Source: Candidatus Culexmicrobium cathedralense
Lineage (GTDB): Archaea; Thermoproteota; Methanomethylicia; Culexarchaeales; Culexmicrobiaceae
Reading direction: 5' to 3'
DNA length: 64,000 nucleotides
NCBI GenBank assembly: GCA_025061115.1
Contig: JANZKC010000001.1
Location: forward strand, 352,001-416,000
The notes beneath the pieces are model-generated. The model made no database searches. It was given only the letters and a program-made list of their open reading frames with translations, and had not been told where the DNA came from. Below, one piece after another: positions 5,259 to 10,599 of the stretch. Position 1 is the stretch's first letter. The number at the start of each line of letters is the position of its first letter. Made by a program: the position numbers and the translations under genes.

Positions 5259-6512
5259 TTACACTCCTCTATTTACTTCAATTCTACCTTCCTTCATCAC
5301 CAACCTTATATTTTCGATTTTTCGCAGAACCCTAATATCTTCAAGAGGGTTTCCATCAACTACGATGACGTCAGCCAGCTTACCAACCTCAATAGTTCCA
5401 ATTTTATCAGCTAAGCCGCAAGCTTCAGCTGCAATTTTAGTTGCAGACACAATGGCATCCATAGGCTTAAATCCAACCTCATCAACTAGCAACTCCAACT
5501 CCATTGCATTAGTACCCATCCGCCATAGAGGAGGGCCGCCAAAGTCAGTTCCAGTAGCAATCTTAACACCAGCCTCATAAGCCAACTTAACGCTCTTCAA
5601 GTGGTACTCGAAAGCCTCAGCAGCCTTCCTCACACCCCACTCAATAATGCCAGCCTCCTTACCCTTAGTGACAATCTGATGCGAAATCGAAAGAGTCGGC
5701 ACCAAAATAACATTTCTCCCCTTCATCATCCTGATAGCCTCATCATCCAAGTATATTCCATGATCAATAGTTTTAACTCCAGCAGCAATAGCAATCTTAA
5801 TACCCTCAGTACCCTGAGCATGGGCAGAAACAAAAGTCCCAACCTTCCTAGCCTCCTCAACTATAGCTCTAATCTCGTCAAACGAAAATTGAGTATGCTC
5901 AGGCCTATCACGCATAGACAATACGCCGCCAGTAGCGCAAATCTTAATAAAGTCAGCACCCTCCCTCAAAGCATACCTAGCAGCCCTACGGCAATCATCA
6001 ACACCATCACAGATAGTGGGAATCTTCTGCTTAACCCACTCAATAGGGAGAAAATGGATATCACCATGACCAAAAGTTTGACTCAAAACATGCCCAGCAG
6101 CCAAAATCCTCGGCCCACGAACACTGCCCTCATTAATAGCCATCTTCAAATACAAGCCATTAGTACCGCCACAATCCTTAACAGTAGTAAAGCCAGCCCC
6201 CAACAAAGCCTCAGCATCACTAACACACCTCAAAAGCCTAACCTGCTCAGGAACAACAAAATACTCCTCCAACCTATGAGTGCGAGTACCCATAAAATGA
6301 ACATGAGCATCAATCAAACCAGGCATAACAGTCAAACCATCAACATCAATAACCTCAGCACCAGCCGGAACCTCAACATCACCAACACGCCCAACAGCCC
6401 TAATCCTACCACCCTCAACCACAACAACACTTCTATCAATTGGGGAAGAACCAGAACCATCAATCAAAAAGCCATTAACCAAAGCTAAACTCTTGCCACA
6501 ACACCTAGCCAT
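5259..6512 (-). CDS. Metal-dependent amidohydrolase (prolidase/Xaa-Pro dipeptidase-like subgroup)
   Basis: PGLIDAHVH, GADFIK, AHAQG, IDHG, ATGTD, GKLADVIVVDGNPL; GGTGA RBS before ATG 6512. Confidence 0.9.
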   Translation of the reverse strand: MARCCGKSLALVNGFLIDGSGSSPIDRSVVVVEGGRIRAVGRVGDVEVPAGAEVIDVDGLTVMPGLIDAHVHFMGTRTHRLEEYFVVPEQVRLLRCVSDAEALLGAGFTTVKDCGGTNGLYLKMAINEGSVRGPRILAAGHVLSQTFGHGDIHFLPIEWVKQKIPTICDGVDDCRRAARYALREGADFIKICATGGVLSMRDRPEHTQFSFDEIRAIVEEARKVGTFVSAHAQGTEGIKIAIAAGVKTIDHGIYLDDEAIRMMKGRNVILVPTLSISHQIVTKGKEAGIIEWGVRKAAEAFEYHLKSVKLAYEAGVKIATGTDFGGPPLWRMGTNAMELELLVDEVGFKPMDAIVSATKIAAEACGLADKIGTIEVGKLADVIVVDGNPLEDIRVLRKIENIRLVMKEGRIEVNRGV

Positions 6513-6574
6513 AAAATCACCAGCAATAATAGAAAGACGCAAAAAATAACCTTAACGGTAAAAATAGAAGTAAA

Positions 6575-7744
6575 CTATGCAGGTATACTACGCAACTTCA
6601 CTGCTTTCCTCGCTATCTCCTGAACTCTACTAATATACTGCTTATGAGGATAAATCCACCTACCATCCACATACCGCTCATAGGGAATAGTTTGACGCAA
6701 ATAGTTTTTAATGTCTAAAATTATATAGCTGAAATCACTTATTACGCCTATACTAGCTAGACTTAATAATGCATTGACAAAATTAAAGAATTCTAATTTC
6801 GGCAAGTACACGTTCATATATATTACATTCTTATTAACAACTTTAGCAACAGATGATGAAAATGGCTTTCCATTAAGAGATTTTATAAACTTATTTAATA
6901 ACACATTATTATTAAATTCAACTCTAAATACGTACATATCAGCTACACTCGATGGATATGGAAAGACAACCGGTCTATAACCTCTTATTAATTTAAATCG
7001 CAAAACATGATTATAATAATGATAACGAATTGCAGGTGGAGTCATTTCTAGCTTTGACGCGATCTCTCTAAAGCTAACACATGCGTCTTTTTCCAATTCT
7101 TTCAAAATAAATATGTCAATATAATCTGGCTTAAACATTAAATTATTTTGGTCAAAATCTACTTTTGAAGTACTTGAAGAAGACCCATTAACTATTTCTT
7201 TAATCCAATCATTCCATCTAAATAACCACTTCTTTCGTTTAAAATCAAACCAATAGAATCCTCTTGAAATATCTATGATATCTTCAACCCATTCAATTAA
7301 GAATCTTTTTATTAAACCACTTTGTTGCATACTTTCTAAGAATGATTTAAATTCAATTTCCTTACCAAAAGGAATTGCAGCACTAACATAAAAACCATTA
7401 TAGTACCCAAAGCAGGGTGCTATATAATTCCAATAATCATTTGCTTTTAGAGCCTCTTTCACAAAAATTCTTTTCCTTGGAAGAATCTCGATTAAAATAT
7501 AAGAAGGCCTTAAACCAATTTTCGGATAATTAATCTTTGTAGTAATTTTAAGCATTTTGTTATTTAATAGTCTTTTAAGATGATAATGAGCTAAAGAAGG
7601 AGATAAACCAGTCATTCTTGCAACTTCGGATATATTCCTAGGATTAGCACGAGTCAATGCCGAAATTAATTGGGCAACAACATGATTTAATTGATTAAGA
7701 TATGCAGTATATTTACTCCAGAGCTCCTTTTCTTCAGCAAACAA
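6575..7744 (-). CDS. Tandem Lrp/AsnC-like (wHTH-effector x2) transcriptional regulator
   Basis: Two HTH units: PRNISEVARMTGLSPSLAHYHLKRL...INYPKIGL and DYIDIFILKELEKDACVSFREIASKLEMTPPAIRYHY; each followed by an alpha/beta domain ending in an aromatic motif. Confidence 0.8.
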   Translation of the reverse strand: MFAEEKELWSKYTAYLNQLNHVVAQLISALTRANPRNISEVARMTGLSPSLAHYHLKRLLNNKMLKITTKINYPKIGLRPSYILIEILPRKRIFVKEALKANDYWNYIAPCFGYYNGFYVSAAIPFGKEIEFKSFLESMQQSGLIKRFLIEWVEDIIDISRGFYWFDFKRKKWLFRWNDWIKEIVNGSSSSTSKVDFDQNNLMFKPDYIDIFILKELEKDACVSFREIASKLEMTPPAIRYHYYNHVLRFKLIRGYRPVVFPYPSSVADMYVFRVEFNNNVLLNKFIKSLNGKPFSSSVAKVVNKNVIYMNVYLPKLEFFNFVNALLSLASIGVISDFSYIILDIKNYLRQTIPYERYVDGRWIYPHKQYISRVQEIARKAVKLRSIPA

Positions 7745-7778
7745 ATTGAGCCCCCTTTATTGTAATATTTTGAAGCAG

Positions 7779-7792
7779 AATAAAAACTTTTC
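7779..7792 (-). promoter_or_regulatory. Putative BRE/TATA promoter of the regulator gene
   Basis: Minus strand GAAAAG-TTTTTATT about 35 nt upstream of TTG 7744; GGGGG RBS-like run in between. Confidence 0.5.
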
Positions 7793-7808
7793 TAAAGAAA
7801 ATTAAATC

Positions 7809-7827
7809 AAAAAGAAAAAGAAATAAA
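7809..7827 (-). terminator. Oligo-T terminator after the small peptide ORF
   Basis: Minus strand TTTATTTCTTTTTCTTTTT starting 12 nt after the stop codon. Confidence 0.55.
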
Positions 7828-7839
7828 GTGTTTATTTAC

Positions 7840-7899
7840 TTAATTTGTGTCGGGCCAAGGATCATCTACAGGGTCTCCCATCGGGTATATCTCTACCAT
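7840..7899 (-). CDS. Small acidic Pro/Asp-rich peptide MVEIYPMGDPVDDPWPDTN (19 aa)
   Basis: ATG 7899 to TAA 7840; GGGGGAGA RBS 7 nt upstream; a GC-richer patch inside very AT-rich intergenic DNA, flanked by TATA box and T-tract. Confidence 0.7.
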   Translation of the reverse strand: MVEIYPMGDPVDDPWPDTN

Positions 7900-7950
7900 T
7901 TCTTTTTCTCCCCCGATTTAATTTTCAAGTAAATTATGTACTAATCTCGC

Positions 7951-7999
7951 CTTATATTTTTTCTTTTTTACAAAAATGTTAAGTTACTCTTTTGTAAAA
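7951..7999 (-). promoter_or_regulatory. BRE/TATA of peptide gene plus upstream 10-bp inverted repeat
   Basis: Minus strand AAGAAAAAAATATAAG (7951-7966); perfect IR TTTTACAAAA (7966-7975)-N14-TTTTGTAAAA (7990-7999). Confidence 0.55.
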
Positions 8000-8276
8000 T
8001 GGGAAGAACATAGTAGTGAATTATTAATCTTTTTTATGATTAGTTTATATGATTAGTAGATTGTATGTAATAATTTCTTTTATTTTATTATCCTTTTTTG
8101 TAGTTAGATTTTTATTTATTTTTTATATGCTTTTGCTATTATTTTGTAAATTAAATTATAGTAGTTTTACTTTTTCTATTTGTATTTTATAGAGAAATTG
8201 TTTTTTAGCATTAAGTACAGAAATCAATTAAATATCTTTTCCTTATGGCATACTGAATATGGCATTTTAGTTTTTG

Positions 8277-9212
8277 TTATTTTATACTGTTTTTTAGTTG
8301 CCAATAATGTCTGATTCCTGTTATTCCTGGTATTTGGGTGTAGAAGTATAGGTGTTGTGTCCATGGTATTGTTGCTATTCTTATTCCGTTTAGTCTCATT
8401 GATTTTAGTGCTTTGAATAGTAGGATTGTTCCTATGCCTTTGTTTTGTTCTTTTTTGATTACTCCTATTGGTCCGAGCCAGCTTGGTTCTAGTGCTCCGT
8501 ATGCTGCGAATCCTATTGGTTGGTTGTTTTGGTTGTATGCTATCAATAGTCCGCCTGTTGGTTCGATTGTTGCTCGTTTTGCTTCGTATGCCCAGTATGG
8601 TGAGAATTTTGTTTTTATCCAGTTTTCTAGTTGATTGATCTCTCCTCTTGTTACTTCTTTAAATGTTGTTCCTTGTTTGATTAGTTTTTGTTTTAGTGTT
8701 TTTATTCTTGTTGGGATGTAGAAGCGTTTTAGGTCTACTTCGTAGTCTACTACTTCTCCGTATTTGGTGAAGCCTGCGGTAAGGTAGTTTGTTAGGTAGT
8801 AGTCATAGTGGATGTCTATTCCTGGGTGGAAGTGCCAGCTTGGAAAGTTTGCTACTCTTATTTCTGTTTTATTTTTGGCTTTTATTTCGTTTAGATATTC
8901 GTTTATTAGTTGTTGGAATAGTTTTTTGGTTCTGTGTTTTGGTGGGATTGCAATTACTTTTATCCATGCAAGGTGTTTTTGTGCTTCAACTAATTCTTTT
9001 GGTGCCCTTGTTCTTTCAACTCCTATTAGTAGGCCTATTAGCTTGTCTTTTTCTAGGGCTAGGAATGTTAGTTTTGATGTGTAATTTGGATCTTGGACTG
9101 TGCATCTTCTTAGCATGTGGTCTGTTATGAAATCTCTCTCCAAAGAAAGGTTGAGAAATTGTTTTAGTTTTAATGCGTGTTCCGGCTTTTCATCTAATCT
9201 ATATATTTTCAA
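8277..9212 (-). CDS. Tandem GNAT N-acetyltransferase
   Basis: C-terminal LGPIGVIKKEQNKGIGTILL acetyl-CoA motif; degenerate N-terminal GNAT (AWIKVIAIPPKHR). Confidence 0.85.
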   Translation of the reverse strand: MKIYRLDEKPEHALKLKQFLNLSLERDFITDHMLRRCTVQDPNYTSKLTFLALEKDKLIGLLIGVERTRAPKELVEAQKHLAWIKVIAIPPKHRTKKLFQQLINEYLNEIKAKNKTEIRVANFPSWHFHPGIDIHYDYYLTNYLTAGFTKYGEVVDYEVDLKRFYIPTRIKTLKQKLIKQGTTFKEVTRGEINQLENWIKTKFSPYWAYEAKRATIEPTGGLLIAYNQNNQPIGFAAYGALEPSWLGPIGVIKKEQNKGIGTILLFKALKSMRLNGIRIATIPWTQHLYFYTQIPGITGIRHYWQLKNSIK

Positions 9213-9231: not shown

Positions 9232-10599
9232 TTATTTGATTGTGGCGTATTCATGTATTATTGCCGCTACGTGTTTCATTCCTTCTATGAAGTCTTTTAT
9301 TCTGATGTTTTCGTTGGGCGCGTGTGCTCTTGAGGCGTAGTAGCCTACTCCTGTGGATGCCATTGGTATTCCGAGGTTCTTTATGAAGAGGTACATTGGA
9401 CCTGAGCCTGCCATTGTTGGATATACTACTGGGGGTTGACCATAAACTTTCACTGCTGCATTTATGGTTGCCTTGACGATTGGAGTGTTGATTGGAGTTT
9501 TAGCTGGATATAACTTTCCTAGCAGCTTTACTTCTATGTCGCTGTAACCTTTGCTTTCCAAGTGCCTCTTCAACTTTTCAAATATGTCTTGGGGATCTTG
9601 ATCTGGAACTAATCTAAAATCTATTTTTGCTACTGCTTTTGAAGGTAGAACTGTTTTGCTGCCCGGTCCAGTGTAGCCGGAAATTATTCCGCATATATTG
9701 CATGTTGGAGAGTATAGGTGATGCTTAAGTGCTTCATATCCTTCAAGTCCATGAAGTAGCTTTTCCAGCTTAAACTCCTTCTTCATCTTCTCGGAGTCGA
9801 ATTCTATTGACTTAACGTGCTCTAGCTCTTCTTTTGATGGAGGTATTATGTTGTCGTAGAATCCTGGGATGAGGATTCTTTCATTTTCATCTTTTAGGGT
9901 TGTTAGTGCTCTTATTAGTTTCCAAGCTGGATTTGGAATTAGAGTTGCATTTGCTGAGTGCACATCTCTAGCTGGGCCGGTTGCAATTAATTCAACATAA
10001 AGTATTCCTTTAACGCCCAAGTAAATGGTTAGTCTTTCCTTAGCGTCTTTTGAACCACTTTCCCAAATTCCTCCATCAGCTTTAAACTTCTCACCATACT
10101 TCTCAATATATCTTGGCAGATTGGGGCTTCCAATTTCCTCTTCACCTTCAATTACGAATTTAATGTTTATTGGAAGTTCACCTAGGGTGTTAAGCATTGC
10201 TTCAATAGCCTTAATTCTAGCAACGATGTTACCCTTATTATCTGAAACTCCTCGAGCAAATATCTTCCCATTTTCAATTACTGGATTGAAAGGCGGATTT
10301 CTCCACTCTTCAATGGGCTCTGGAGGCTGGACGTCATAGTGATTGTAGAATAACAGTGTTTTATTTGAGCGACTCGACCTGATTTCTCCATAAATTAGTG
10401 GAGGAGCACCCTCCAGTCTAAGCAGCTCTACTTTCGCTCCAATACTCTCCAGCAGCTCCTTAACCTTACCTGCACAATCCTCTAGGCCCTCATTTCTCGC
10501 TGAAATACTTGGCTGAGAACACAATTCCACTAAGTCTCGAATCGCCTCACCCGAATGCTCATCAATATACTGGAAGACCCTGCTTAAGGAACTTTCCAC
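9232..10599 (-). CDS. M20/M25/M40 metallopeptidase (dipeptidase-like)
   Basis: YNHYDVQP, ARGVSDNKG, EGEEEIGS, AHAPNE. Confidence 0.93.
   Translation of the reverse strand: MESSLSRVFQYIDEHSGEAIRDLVELCSQPSISARNEGLEDCAGKVKELLESIGAKVELLRLEGAPPLIYGEIRSSRSNKTLLFYNHYDVQPPEPIEEWRNPPFNPVIENGKIFARGVSDNKGNIVARIKAIEAMLNTLGELPINIKFVIEGEEEIGSPNLPRYIEKYGEKFKADGGIWESGSKDAKERLTIYLGVKGILYVELIATGPARDVHSANATLIPNPAWKLIRALTTLKDENERILIPGFYDNIIPPSKEELEHVKSIEFDSEKMKKEFKLEKLLHGLEGYEALKHHLYSPTCNICGIISGYTGPGSKTVLPSKAVAKIDFRLVPDQDPQDIFEKLKRHLESKGYSDIEVKLLGKLYPAKTPINTPIVKATINAAVKVYGQPPVVYPTMAGSGPMYLFIKNLGIPMASTGVGYYASRAHAPNENIRIKDFIEGMKHVAAIIHEYATIK

Follow-up and report, generated by a model that had tools for sequence, protein, structure and literature searches.

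A short peptide gene beside a fused tandem Lrp/AsnC-type regulator: a candidate cassette for peptide-controlled gene regulation in archaea

Our analysis concerned a 64,000-nt stretch of DNA from Candidatus Culexmicrobium cathedralense (the window; genome G000), in which a 19-codon open reading frame (ORF) precedes the gene of a 389-residue regulator on the same strand (Table 1). The first-pass annotation of this DNA had described the small ORF together with a Shine-Dalgarno (SD) sequence, a BRE/TATA box and an oligo-T tract, and had placed it in a GC-richer patch ahead of a co-oriented regulator gene with a promoter-like box and SD of its own. All of these elements are confirmed by the sequence, and the GC content, taken in 60-nt windows, is 0.43–0.45 over the peptide ORF against 0.12–0.25 in the intergenic flanks. 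By analogy with established archaeal promoter architecture, the AAAGAAAAAATATAAG box probably works as the promoter of the peptide gene, and the oligo-T tract is a candidate archaeal terminator; in the alignment of orthologous loci, T-rich tracts likewise lie 3' of the ORF. The predicted product is acidic and proline-rich with a conserved core, GDPVDDPWP (GDPVDDPWPDTN is the core segment of the 19-residue peptide). It lacks hydrophobic stretches (its 15-residue hydropathy peaks at −0.3), and no upstream extension of the ORF is possible. Pfam and NCBIfam held no family matching the peptides, and the 231-nt region has no second copy in the genome, so that a repeat or mobile element reading was rejected.

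Table 1. Features of the peptide-regulator locus, in window coordinates
Feature	Position	Strand	Details
Regulator ORF	6575..7744	-	389 aa from a TTG start; 95 nt lie between it and the peptide stop codon
Regulator SD-like AAGGGGG	7757-7751	-	sequence
Regulator promoter-like box AAAGTTTTTATTC	7790-7778	-	(A)AAG(C/T)(T/A)TTTAT conserved in aligned loci
T-rich (oligo-T) tract TTTATTTCTTTTTCTTTTT	7809..7827	-	13 nt 3' of the peptide stop codon
Peptide ORF	7840..7899	-	ATG 7899-7897, TAA 7842-7840; 19 codons, product MVEIYPMGDPVDDPWPDTN
Shine-Dalgarno-like GGGGGAGA	7907..7914	-	7 nt 5' of the peptide ATG
Peptide-gene BRE/TATA-like box AAAGAAAAAATATAAG	7951..7966	-	near-invariant in 7 aligned loci
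Inverted repeat TTTACAAAA-N14-TTTTGTAAA	7967..7998	.	perfect, 32-bp, directly adjoins the BRE/TATA box
Upstream conserved block CTAATCATATAAACTAATCATAAAA ... GATTAATAATTCAC ... TTCTTCCC	8001..8057	-	conserved alignment columns

Its pattern of substitutions marks the 19-codon ORF as a genuine coding gene whose amino-acid sequence is under purifying selection. Between G000 and its closest relative (G001), all six differences in the 11-codon core are synonymous and fall at third codon positions; in a random-substitution simulation of 100,000 runs, the protein stayed unchanged in 2e-5 of them. Across 27 loci with the G-D-P-[VI] core, the D and P codons are invariant at positions 1 and 2 and free at position 3, a count that is partly circular, as the loci were anchored on the motif itself. 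Moreover, GGAGG or GGGGG SD-like runs are found 5' of the ATG at the matching place in all seven Culexarchaeia-type loci, the Bathyarchaeia loci have AAAGGAGGTGA at the SD position, and a pattern search of the 1.98-Mb genome returned one such gene (reversed control, none). The synonymous substitutions, the SD runs, the single genome match and the retention of the ORF beside orthologous regulators together put it beyond chance. It is extremely improbable that the ORF arose by chance, or that it is a conserved non-coding element (e.g. an sRNA) that happens to stay open: its very small size and some sub-threshold Rfam matches (snoR03, 21 bits with a cut-off of 80; MIR2871, 20 with a cut-off of 99) would fit such an element, while the three-base periodicity of the substitutions, the conservation of start codon and SD, the absence of any Rfam family at threshold and an amino-acid motif common to two classes of archaea, though the DNA differs, all speak against it. 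With permissive thresholds Rfam gave chance-level matches only, all below threshold, and the RNA-element reading was rejected.

The pair of peptide and regulator is present in two classes of archaea. A search for related loci in genome and metagenome contigs with the single protein gave nothing, and repeats of the search based on alignments found them. Seven of the eight orthologous loci of Culexarchaeia type carry an ORF of 11–27 codons bearing G-[DE]-P-[VI]-D-D-P-x-P, with zero to three residues between the motif and the stop codon; the exception is G003, whose regulator ortholog persists without the peptide ORF. Three f7 relatives show a variant motif, M(G/V)PGPIP(F/M)P. The regulators of Bathyarchaeia are about 30% identical, and here the motif lies at the C-terminus of an ORF of 50–97 aa, the stop codon of which is 43–157 nt upstream of the regulator gene. 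Collecting regulator homologues and scanning upstream of them for the motif, as the first-pass annotation had advised, thus gave a positive result, and a wider one than predicted. Its statement that there is no signal sequence is right for the window peptide; the Bathyarchaeia precursors do carry one, a Sec-type signal peptide with K/R-rich n-regions and hydrophobic cores (hydropathy 2.0–3.1).

Within the main Bathyarchaeia clade the ORF was found at 27 of 29 loci; of the remaining two, one has the frame but reads ACG where the start codon would be, and the other has none. In a second Bathyarchaeia clade the ORF was found at all three. Three paralogous regulator clades had no such ORF (0/15, 0/5 and 0/5; together 0/25), and a control scan of the opposite strand found none either (0/68). 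From this comparison, the peptide gene and the adjacent tandem Lrp/AsnC-type regulator are an old two-gene cassette, in which the pairing is tied to particular regulator clades. The classes of peptide track the regulator phylogeny, a pattern that vertical descent alone would yield. A second copy of the locus in G062 has lost the peptide start codon and kept the regulator, which, considered with the G003 ortholog, indicates that the regulator can be kept where the peptide is missing. The two Bathyarchaeia loci that were read from end to end had nothing in common except the pair and shared no transporter or modifying enzyme. Among the neighbours of the regulator we saw GNAT, M20 peptidase, amidohydrolase and nuclease-like ORFs and no haem-pathway genes; orf326 belongs to no family in Pfam, NCBIfam or PADLOC. 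In existing annotation the regulators are listed only as AsnC/Lrp family or hypothetical proteins, and the Bathyarchaeia peptides as hypothetical.

The arrangement of the two genes could also be that of a cis-acting leader peptide (uORF), in which the act of translating the Pro/Asp-rich ORF would govern either transcription read-through into the regulator gene or the translation of that gene; the ORF is on the same strand, ends 95 nt upstream, is separated from the regulator by the T-tract, and has an SD region able to pair with that tract. We regard this as very improbable. A leader peptide would hardly have relatives of 50–97 aa with Sec-type signal peptides, the regulator gene carries a conserved promoter-like box and an SD of its own, and the fold is no better than that of shuffled sequences (z −1.25; equalled or bettered by 18 of 200 shuffles); in these three respects the locus is unlike attenuation-type leaders. 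The distance from motif to stop codon also varies among the Culexarchaeia-type peptides. The leader peptide that the first-pass annotation had offered as an alternative is, given the relatives with signal peptides, unlikely. Long-range pairing between the SD region and the T-tract was itself rejected as a candidate, being no better than in shuffles on the minus strand, as above, or on the plus strand (z −1.88).

Profile and fold support the regulator as a fused tandem Lrp/AsnC-type protein, in keeping with the initial description of it as a tandem Lrp-like regulator with two wHTH modules. Pfam placed the first wHTH (HTH_5/HTH_20) at residues 25–62 and the second (HTH_24, 9e-13; HTH_AsnC-type, 4.5e-10) at residues 207–242, and each carries an alpha-beta effector-type domain and, after it, a Trp-rich hairpin (W165, W173, F175, W177, W180 and G361, W363). 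The AlphaFold2 model (pLDDT 92.2, pTM 0.89) contains beta-alpha-beta-beta-alpha-beta elements. When the profile was compared with PDB sequences, full-length regulators matched over residues 185–337 and 3–137, the second half being closest to PH0140 (5.6e-15) and the first half to PH0061 (4.3e-12), with NirDL at 1.8e-6. Foldseek aligned 139–148 columns with Lrp/AsnC structures, at a TM of 0.55–0.71 on the target. The Pfam effector-domain model PF01037 found no match in the regulator, PADLOC gave generic HTH-level matches only, and neither Pfam nor NCBIfam detected a TPR family.

With the whole chain, Foldseek gave NirDL as its top match (E 2.5e-13, TM 0.49–0.60), a siroheme decarboxylase that is likewise a fusion of Lrp-like modules, and Lrp/AsnC regulators came next. 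Like NirDL/AhbA-AhbB, the regulator has two Lrp/AsnC-like modules in one chain, which raises a reading in which the tandem Lrp-fold protein is not, or not only, a regulator and recognises or modifies the peptide (as in NirDL/AhbAB or wHTH-type RiPP recognition elements) and the small ORF encodes its substrate or precursor; the conserved C-terminal core and variable N-terminal part of the peptides may be compared to the leader/core layout of RiPPs. The identity to NirDL is 11–12% with an rmsd of 13 Å over the whole chain, and the neighbours seen include no genes of the haem pathway. We find this reading improbable, as the profile favours DNA-binding regulators far over NirDL and the promoter palindromes described below suit a DNA-binding protein. 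Nor does any radical-SAM, YcaO, protease or transporter gene occur as a shared neighbour, leaving the modified-peptide precursor, another alternative raised at first, with no support from neighbouring genes.

The inverted repeat that adjoins the BRE/TATA box is conserved in the seven aligned loci and is a candidate operator, likely to be the DNA target of the regulator; palindromic target sites are typical of the Lrp/AsnC family, according to PMC2715240. A profile scan of the whole genome found one other copy of the repeat (G000:C2:53876-53919, E 0.054), with the remaining matches at E of at least 1.8. This second copy precedes the gene of a 4-TM protein and is kept there in G001 and G002, where the peptide is present, and is not kept in G003, where the peptide is missing; a search of G004 and G005, which have the peptide, yielded no 4-TM homologue with the query used. 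The 4-TM protein falls into no Pfam or NCBIfam family, its model (pLDDT 84.6) resembles no fold in the PDB at E ≤ 0.001, and the Atlas gave unnamed clusters only. An AgrB-like Cys/His pair in this protein was considered and rejected, as the pair is not conserved. The peptide promoters of Bathyarchaeia have a palindrome of their own, TTCTAGAA, just upstream of a TATA-like box.

Taken together, these features make the cassette a credible candidate for peptide-controlled gene regulation in archaea, as judged from comparative sequence data. The best reading, which we hold tentatively and with somewhat less than even confidence, is a feedback or signalling circuit between peptide and regulator. The regulator would bind the inverted repeat overlapping or adjoining the BRE/TATA box and so set transcription of the peptide gene, and from the second repeat would also set that of the gene for the co-regulated 4-TM membrane protein. 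In turn the regulator would be bound by the peptide, whole or as an acidic proline-rich core of about 10–12 residues, and would change its DNA binding, which would complete a loop of feedback or autoinduction. Bathyarchaeia would export the peptide by way of Sec, after which it would have to re-enter the cell, and in the Culexarchaeia-type genome, with no export signal, it would act intracellularly or leave by another route. A cytoplasmic partner is favoured by the retention of the motif beside the same regulator without any export signal. Moreover, Tyr340 and Tyr355 of the regulator set the two kinds of clade apart, being conserved in each of the three linked to a peptide and substituted in each of the three that have none, and these residues are a lead for a putative peptide-binding surface.

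Several points count against the circuit. Co-inheritance of a regulator and its target is common and needs no ligand role for the product, the second operator match reaches only E 0.054, and an enzyme rather than a regulator heads the structural matches of the whole chain. The descent-like distribution of the peptide classes, the regulators kept without a peptide in G003 and G062, and the negative 4-TM search in G004 and G005 weigh on the same side. The known effectors of Lrp/AsnC proteins comprise amino acids and further small molecules rather than peptides. It is a serious, if minority, possibility that the tandem Lrp protein is a local regulator that switches the peptide gene and that the peptide never touches it and works elsewhere, the exported form of Bathyarchaeia being, for example, cation-binding, surface-associated or antagonistic, and the form in the window acting inside the cell with another partner. 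Such a role would be consistent with the conserved promoter and operator candidates 5' of the peptide gene, with the many functions open to acidic Asp/Pro or Gly-rich tails, with the peptide-less regulator ortholog of G003, and with the Sec-type signal peptides of Bathyarchaeia, which suggest that the peptide acts outside the cell. On the other hand, a purely extracellular role is hard to square with a core motif kept without an export signal in seven Culexarchaeia-type loci, and the pairing holds down to about 30% regulator identity, is all that the two fully read Bathyarchaeia loci share, and goes along with the two clade-specific Tyr residues.

The first-pass annotation had interpreted the peptide as a ligand of the regulator in a feedback or signalling loop. 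What stands of this is the motif-bearing ORF that accompanies the regulator lineage, the tandem Lrp architecture and the separate promoter with its conserved palindromic operator candidate; the ligand role keeps the tentative standing given to the circuit above. A fuller version of the circuit would make the locus the leaderless branch of a widespread archaeal peptide-sensing system, in which a double-Lrp receptor binds a ribosomally made G-D-P-[VI]-type peptide at an aromatic surface that includes Tyr340, Tyr355 and the Trp-rich hairpins, serving cell-cell communication in the signal-peptide-bearing Bathyarchaeia and having turned in Culexarchaeia into an autoregulatory switch, either intracellular or with another mode of export, that acts on the 4-TM protein as well; as a whole, we consider this version rather unlikely.

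Cell-cell communication in archaea is described as poorly characterised in PMC12240190 and PMC13464002, and a full-text literature search, judged at the level of abstracts, brought up no archaeal peptide-receptor pair and no such cassette. If the fuller version is true, its cell-cell communication in Bathyarchaeia would be the earliest case of peptide quorum sensing described for archaea, and its receptor would have a fold with no relation to those of bacteria. The cassette offers a concrete, testable pair in the form of a synthesisable 19-residue peptide, a soluble 389-residue regulator with a confident model, and a 32-bp palindrome. The occurrence of one core motif in leaderless (Culexarchaeia-type) and signal-peptide-bearing (Bathyarchaeia) form is a natural experiment on intracellular versus extracellular action, and the genes belong to a class that gene callers and annotations miss.

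Several known systems resemble parts of this arrangement. The RRNPP systems (Rap-Phr, PlcR-PapR, NprR-NprX, AimR-AimP) are peptide-receptor cassettes of Bacillota and their phages, with propeptides that are exported and then re-imported through an oligopeptide permease. As in these, a tiny propeptide gene adjoins the gene of a putative cytoplasmic DNA-binding receptor (95 nt apart here, 43–157 nt in relatives), activity would reside in the conserved C-terminal part of the peptide, and the Bathyarchaeia relatives have a Sec-type signal peptide, like Phr and PapR. They differ in that the putative receptor here is a duplicated Lrp/AsnC fold (wHTH plus alpha-beta domain) rather than TPR, that the host belongs to the Archaea, and that the window peptide has no export signal. 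In the Rgg/SHP and ComR/ComS systems of streptococci, the peptides are very short, lack a classical signal peptide and have their genes next to that of a regulator, which controls the promoter of the peptide gene. The window peptide shares with them its small size, its lack of a classical signal peptide and its place beside the regulator; however, SHP is hydrophobic and needs a dedicated exporter and protease, in contrast to the acidic, proline-rich window peptide, the receptors have different folds, and the 4-TM protein is at most a candidate exporter. Compared with the Lrp/AsnC (feast/famine, FFRP) proteins, both halves of the regulator match PH0140, LrpA, PH0061 and PH1519 in profile and fold, but two complete modules occupy one chain, each has an added Trp-rich hairpin, PF01037 is unmatched, and the proposed ligand is a peptide instead of an amino acid. 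Genes of family-5 solute-binding proteins, with no known link to the cassette, are also present in the genome.

Every element that the first-pass annotation had placed here is present in the minus-strand sequence, namely a small ORF with a ribosome-binding site, BRE/TATA box and T tract, followed by a 389-aa ORF (see table), and the GC-richer patch it had noted is borne out (GC 0.43-0.45 over the peptide ORF vs 0.12-0.25 around it). In the window's genome (G000; 1.98 Mb, 25 contigs), a pattern search found the peptide gene to be the sole one of its kind, with no repeat copies of the region elsewhere, and no Rfam family came close to its threshold there. A same-strand ORF of 11-27 codons precedes the regulator in seven of eight orthologous Culexarchaeia-type (Culex-type) loci, encoding MFAIYPMGDPVDDPFPW in G001 (same genus), MFAIYPMGDPIDDPYPDGDPIDDPYPD in locus L043 (motif duplicated), MKFNFGKGDPVDDPVP in locus L040, MKFTFGGDPVDDPVP in G002, MFGLIYRDDDDGREPIDDPYPN, the most divergent of the set, in G004, and MDPVYDPLPGC in G005 (same order). 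Over the IYPMGDPVDDP stretch, 6 of 33 bases distinguish G000 from G001, all six at third positions and synonymous; six random substitutions left the peptide unchanged in 2e-5 of trials in a 100,000-trial simulation. At every Culex-type peptide locus a GGAGG/GGGGG run lies upstream of the ATG. Because the ORF is conserved beside orthologues, with synonymous substitutions and Shine-Dalgarno runs, and is single-copy and outside any Rfam family, the comparative evidence shows the peptide ORF to be a genuine protein-coding gene, subject to selection and overlooked by gene callers; that it is a chance ORF is extremely improbable. Upstream of the orthologous regulator of G003 no motif-bearing ORF was found. 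There (locus L013, G003:C4) a 26-codon hydrophobic ORF, MGIVAILIICALLRISFFTFILTRFL, replaces it between a GNAT gene and the regulator, overlapping the regulator's promoter-like box, and may be due to chance.

Features of the peptide-regulator locus, its neighbours and related elements (window coordinates unless a contig or locus is named)
Feature	Position	Strand	Remarks
Peptide gene	ATG at 7899, TAA 7842-7840	-	encodes MVEIYPMGDPVDDPWPDTN
Shine-Dalgarno-like	7914-7907	-	GGGGGAGA, 7 nt upstream of ATG
BRE/TATA-like	7966-7951	-	AAAGAAAAAATATAAG, putative promoter box of peptide gene
Perfect inverted repeat	7967-7998		TTTACAAAA-N14-TTTTGTAAA, immediately then AAAAAAGAAAAAATATAAG; alignment of 7 Culex-type loci
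Further conserved block	8001-8057		alignment of 7 Culex-type loci
T-rich tract	7827-7809	-	downstream of peptide stop codon
Regulator, 389 aa	7744..6575	-	TTG start, 95 nt past peptide stop codon
Amidohydrolase	5259-6542	-	PF01979, 2.5e-59
orf326, 326 aa	4228-5208	-	downstream of regulator
GNAT acetyltransferase	8277-9212	-
455-aa ORF	9232-10599	-
Second repeat, promoter box and four-helix membrane protein gene (predicted)	G000:C2:53876-54425 (locus L120 1500-2052)		outside window
C/D-box sRNA-like element	locus L010 1128-1183	+	G000:C2

The proposed scan for small ORFs upstream of regulator homologues, which we retrieved from metagenome and genome contigs with the regulator alignment A1, yielded motif-bearing ORFs in Bathyarchaeia as well as in Culex-type loci. 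A regulator homologue at E <= 1e-30 was found in 62 of 301 Bathyarchaeia-class genomes, and 30 loci were taken. In the Bathyarchaeia loci, an ORF of about 50-97 codons on the regulator's strand stops 43-157 nt upstream of it and combines a K/R-rich N-terminus with a hydrophobic core (maximum 15-residue hydropathy 2.0-3.1, in some loci seen only from a GTG/TTG start behind a Shine-Dalgarno) and a C-terminus bearing the Culex-type core (...QPCGGEPIDDPTPG, ...QPTGDPVDNPVFPS, ...LTGDPIDDPLIAS, ...EILGDPVDDVKPH), with Gly-rich variants in sub-clades (...GDPVPGGGPGGD, ...GGGDPVPGGGIPK, ...GDERGGGWP). When 68 distinct regulators are placed in a quick maximum-likelihood tree, presence of the ORF tracks the clades: it occurs in 27 of 29 loci of the main Bathyarchaeia clade (two of the 27 cut at contig ends), 3/3 of a second Bathyarchaeia clade, 5/6 of the Culex-type clade and, as the variant M(G/V)PGPIP(F/M)P, in all three loci with upstream DNA of its sister group f7, and in 0/15 loci of the Culex paralogue clade, 0/5 of each of two further clades and 0/1 for locus L014. 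The same detector found an ORF on the opposite strand in 0/68. Within the main clade, L101 has no peptide ORF, and L087 (G062:C40), at a second regulator copy, keeps an intact frame with ACG where relatives have ATG and a core changed to GDDVDSPVP, which may mean that the copy is decaying or that a non-canonical start is used. Across 27 loci, positions 1-2 of the Asp and Pro codons of the G-D-P-[VI] core are invariant and third positions vary freely, a count that is partly circular because the loci were anchored on the motif. Two Bathyarchaeia loci read end to end have the pair as their sole common content. These comparisons show that the pairing of the peptide with one tandem Lrp/AsnC lineage is clade-specific and conserved across classes, and the pair, judged by its distribution, is much older than the order. 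Public annotation calls the peptides hypothetical (8 matches), and no Pfam or NCBIfam model matches them. In locus L105 (G330:C1) the C-terminal unit PNGDEIGGGWPTP is present twice, the ORF being partly masked as N.

The two wHTH modules claimed for the 389-aa protein are placed by Pfam at residues 25-62 and 207-242, and a confident AlphaFold2 model (68-sequence alignment; pLDDT 92.2, pTM 0.89) predicts two wHTH-plus-alpha-beta modules. Foldseek with the whole chain gave the fused siroheme decarboxylase NirDL as top match (E 2.5e-13), followed by many Lrp/AsnC regulators, each matching one module. Profile searches gave PH0140 (5.6e-15) and LrpA (1.5e-14) for the second half and PH0061 (4.3e-12) for the first, with NirDL at just 1.8e-6, weaker than these regulators. 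Profile and model together indicate that the protein belongs to the Lrp/AsnC superfamily as a fused tandem version, and we regard a RiPP-like or enzyme reading of the pair as improbable. Near-invariant aromatics stand behind module 1 (W165, W173, F175, W177, W180), with G361 and W363 behind module 2. The three peptide-linked clades all keep Tyr340 and Tyr355, and the three peptide-less ones all have other residues there, a lead rather than a test because there are three contrasts only. The genome holds one paralogue (33% identity); orthologues (46-69% identity) occur in G001, G003, G005 and two metagenome contigs, and the G002 copy is truncated at a contig end. In public annotation the regulators are Lrp/AsnC family or hypothetical (43 matches). 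The G004 orthologue (L037/L016, G004:C11:9551-10607) is split in two frames, residues 6-160 and 204-384, owing perhaps to a frameshift, a disrupted gene or faulty assembly.

Among seven Culex-type upstream regions, the strongest alignment lies in the peptide promoter, not in the ORF. Pattern search and a whole-genome profile scan found one other copy of its inverted repeat in G000 (G000:C2:53876-53919, E 0.054), all remaining matches having E >= 1.8. This copy has the same repeat-plus-box arrangement and lies about 50 nt upstream of a gene for a 152-aa protein, beginning MTSDPIPIITPDN, whose four predicted helices carry two invariant Glu and two invariant Asn and which matched no family or known fold. 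Its repeat-bearing promoter is kept in G001 and G002, and G003, which lacks the peptide, has a homologue of the gene without the repeat; this gene and the peptide gene may share their regulation. In Bathyarchaeia, the promoters of the peptide genes contain a separate conserved palindrome, TTCTAGAA, some 10 nt upstream of a CATATAA box, together with a strong Shine-Dalgarno. Conserved palindromes are thus shown, at the sequence level, to be carried by the peptide promoters. A leader peptide, the reading that the ORF's place ahead of the regulator brings to mind, is very unlikely.

The regulator would bind the promoter palindromes, and the peptide would in turn act on the regulator. Leaderless peptides of the Culex type share their motif with exported-type Bathyarchaeia peptides beside the same regulator, which argues for a partner reachable in the cytoplasm, with the regulator as the obvious candidate. 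Against such a circuit, a regulator and its target gene are often co-inherited, known Lrp effectors are small molecules, and some regulators are retained without the peptide. We therefore hold the circuit only tentatively, a little short of an even chance; it is possible, if rather doubtful, that the protein is a plain local regulator of a peptide having another function, and something else again is unlikely. The circuit's proposed working would resemble that of RRNPP and Rgg/SHP cassettes; it belongs to neither group, since its proposed receptor is no TPR protein. No such archaeal cassette came up in the titles and abstracts of the literature searched. What the window adds is a leaderless peptide variant, the core motif common to leaderless and exported forms, and a second promoter with a candidate operator in the same genome.

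Downstream of the regulator, orf326 recurs in the Culex-type loci with downstream DNA (G001, G003, G004, G005, L040). It has no Pfam, NCBIfam or PADLOC family; a PD...E-x-K-like motif (SPDFIIECK) is seen by eye, and its best Atlas cluster, 'Restriction endonuclease family protein' (high score), is a weak lead. The amidohydrolase between regulator and orf326 is also seen in G001 and, cut at a contig end, in L043. The 455-aa ORF looks M20 peptidase-like by eye only, and G003 and G004 likewise have the GNAT and M20-like ORFs upstream. The C/D-box sRNA-like element, flanked by a pelota-like gene and the regulator paralogue, scored 33.9 bits with Rfam snoPyro_CD (under the cut-off of 45; E 2e-5), and its sequence recurs upstream of the regulator paralogue in the order's other genomes.
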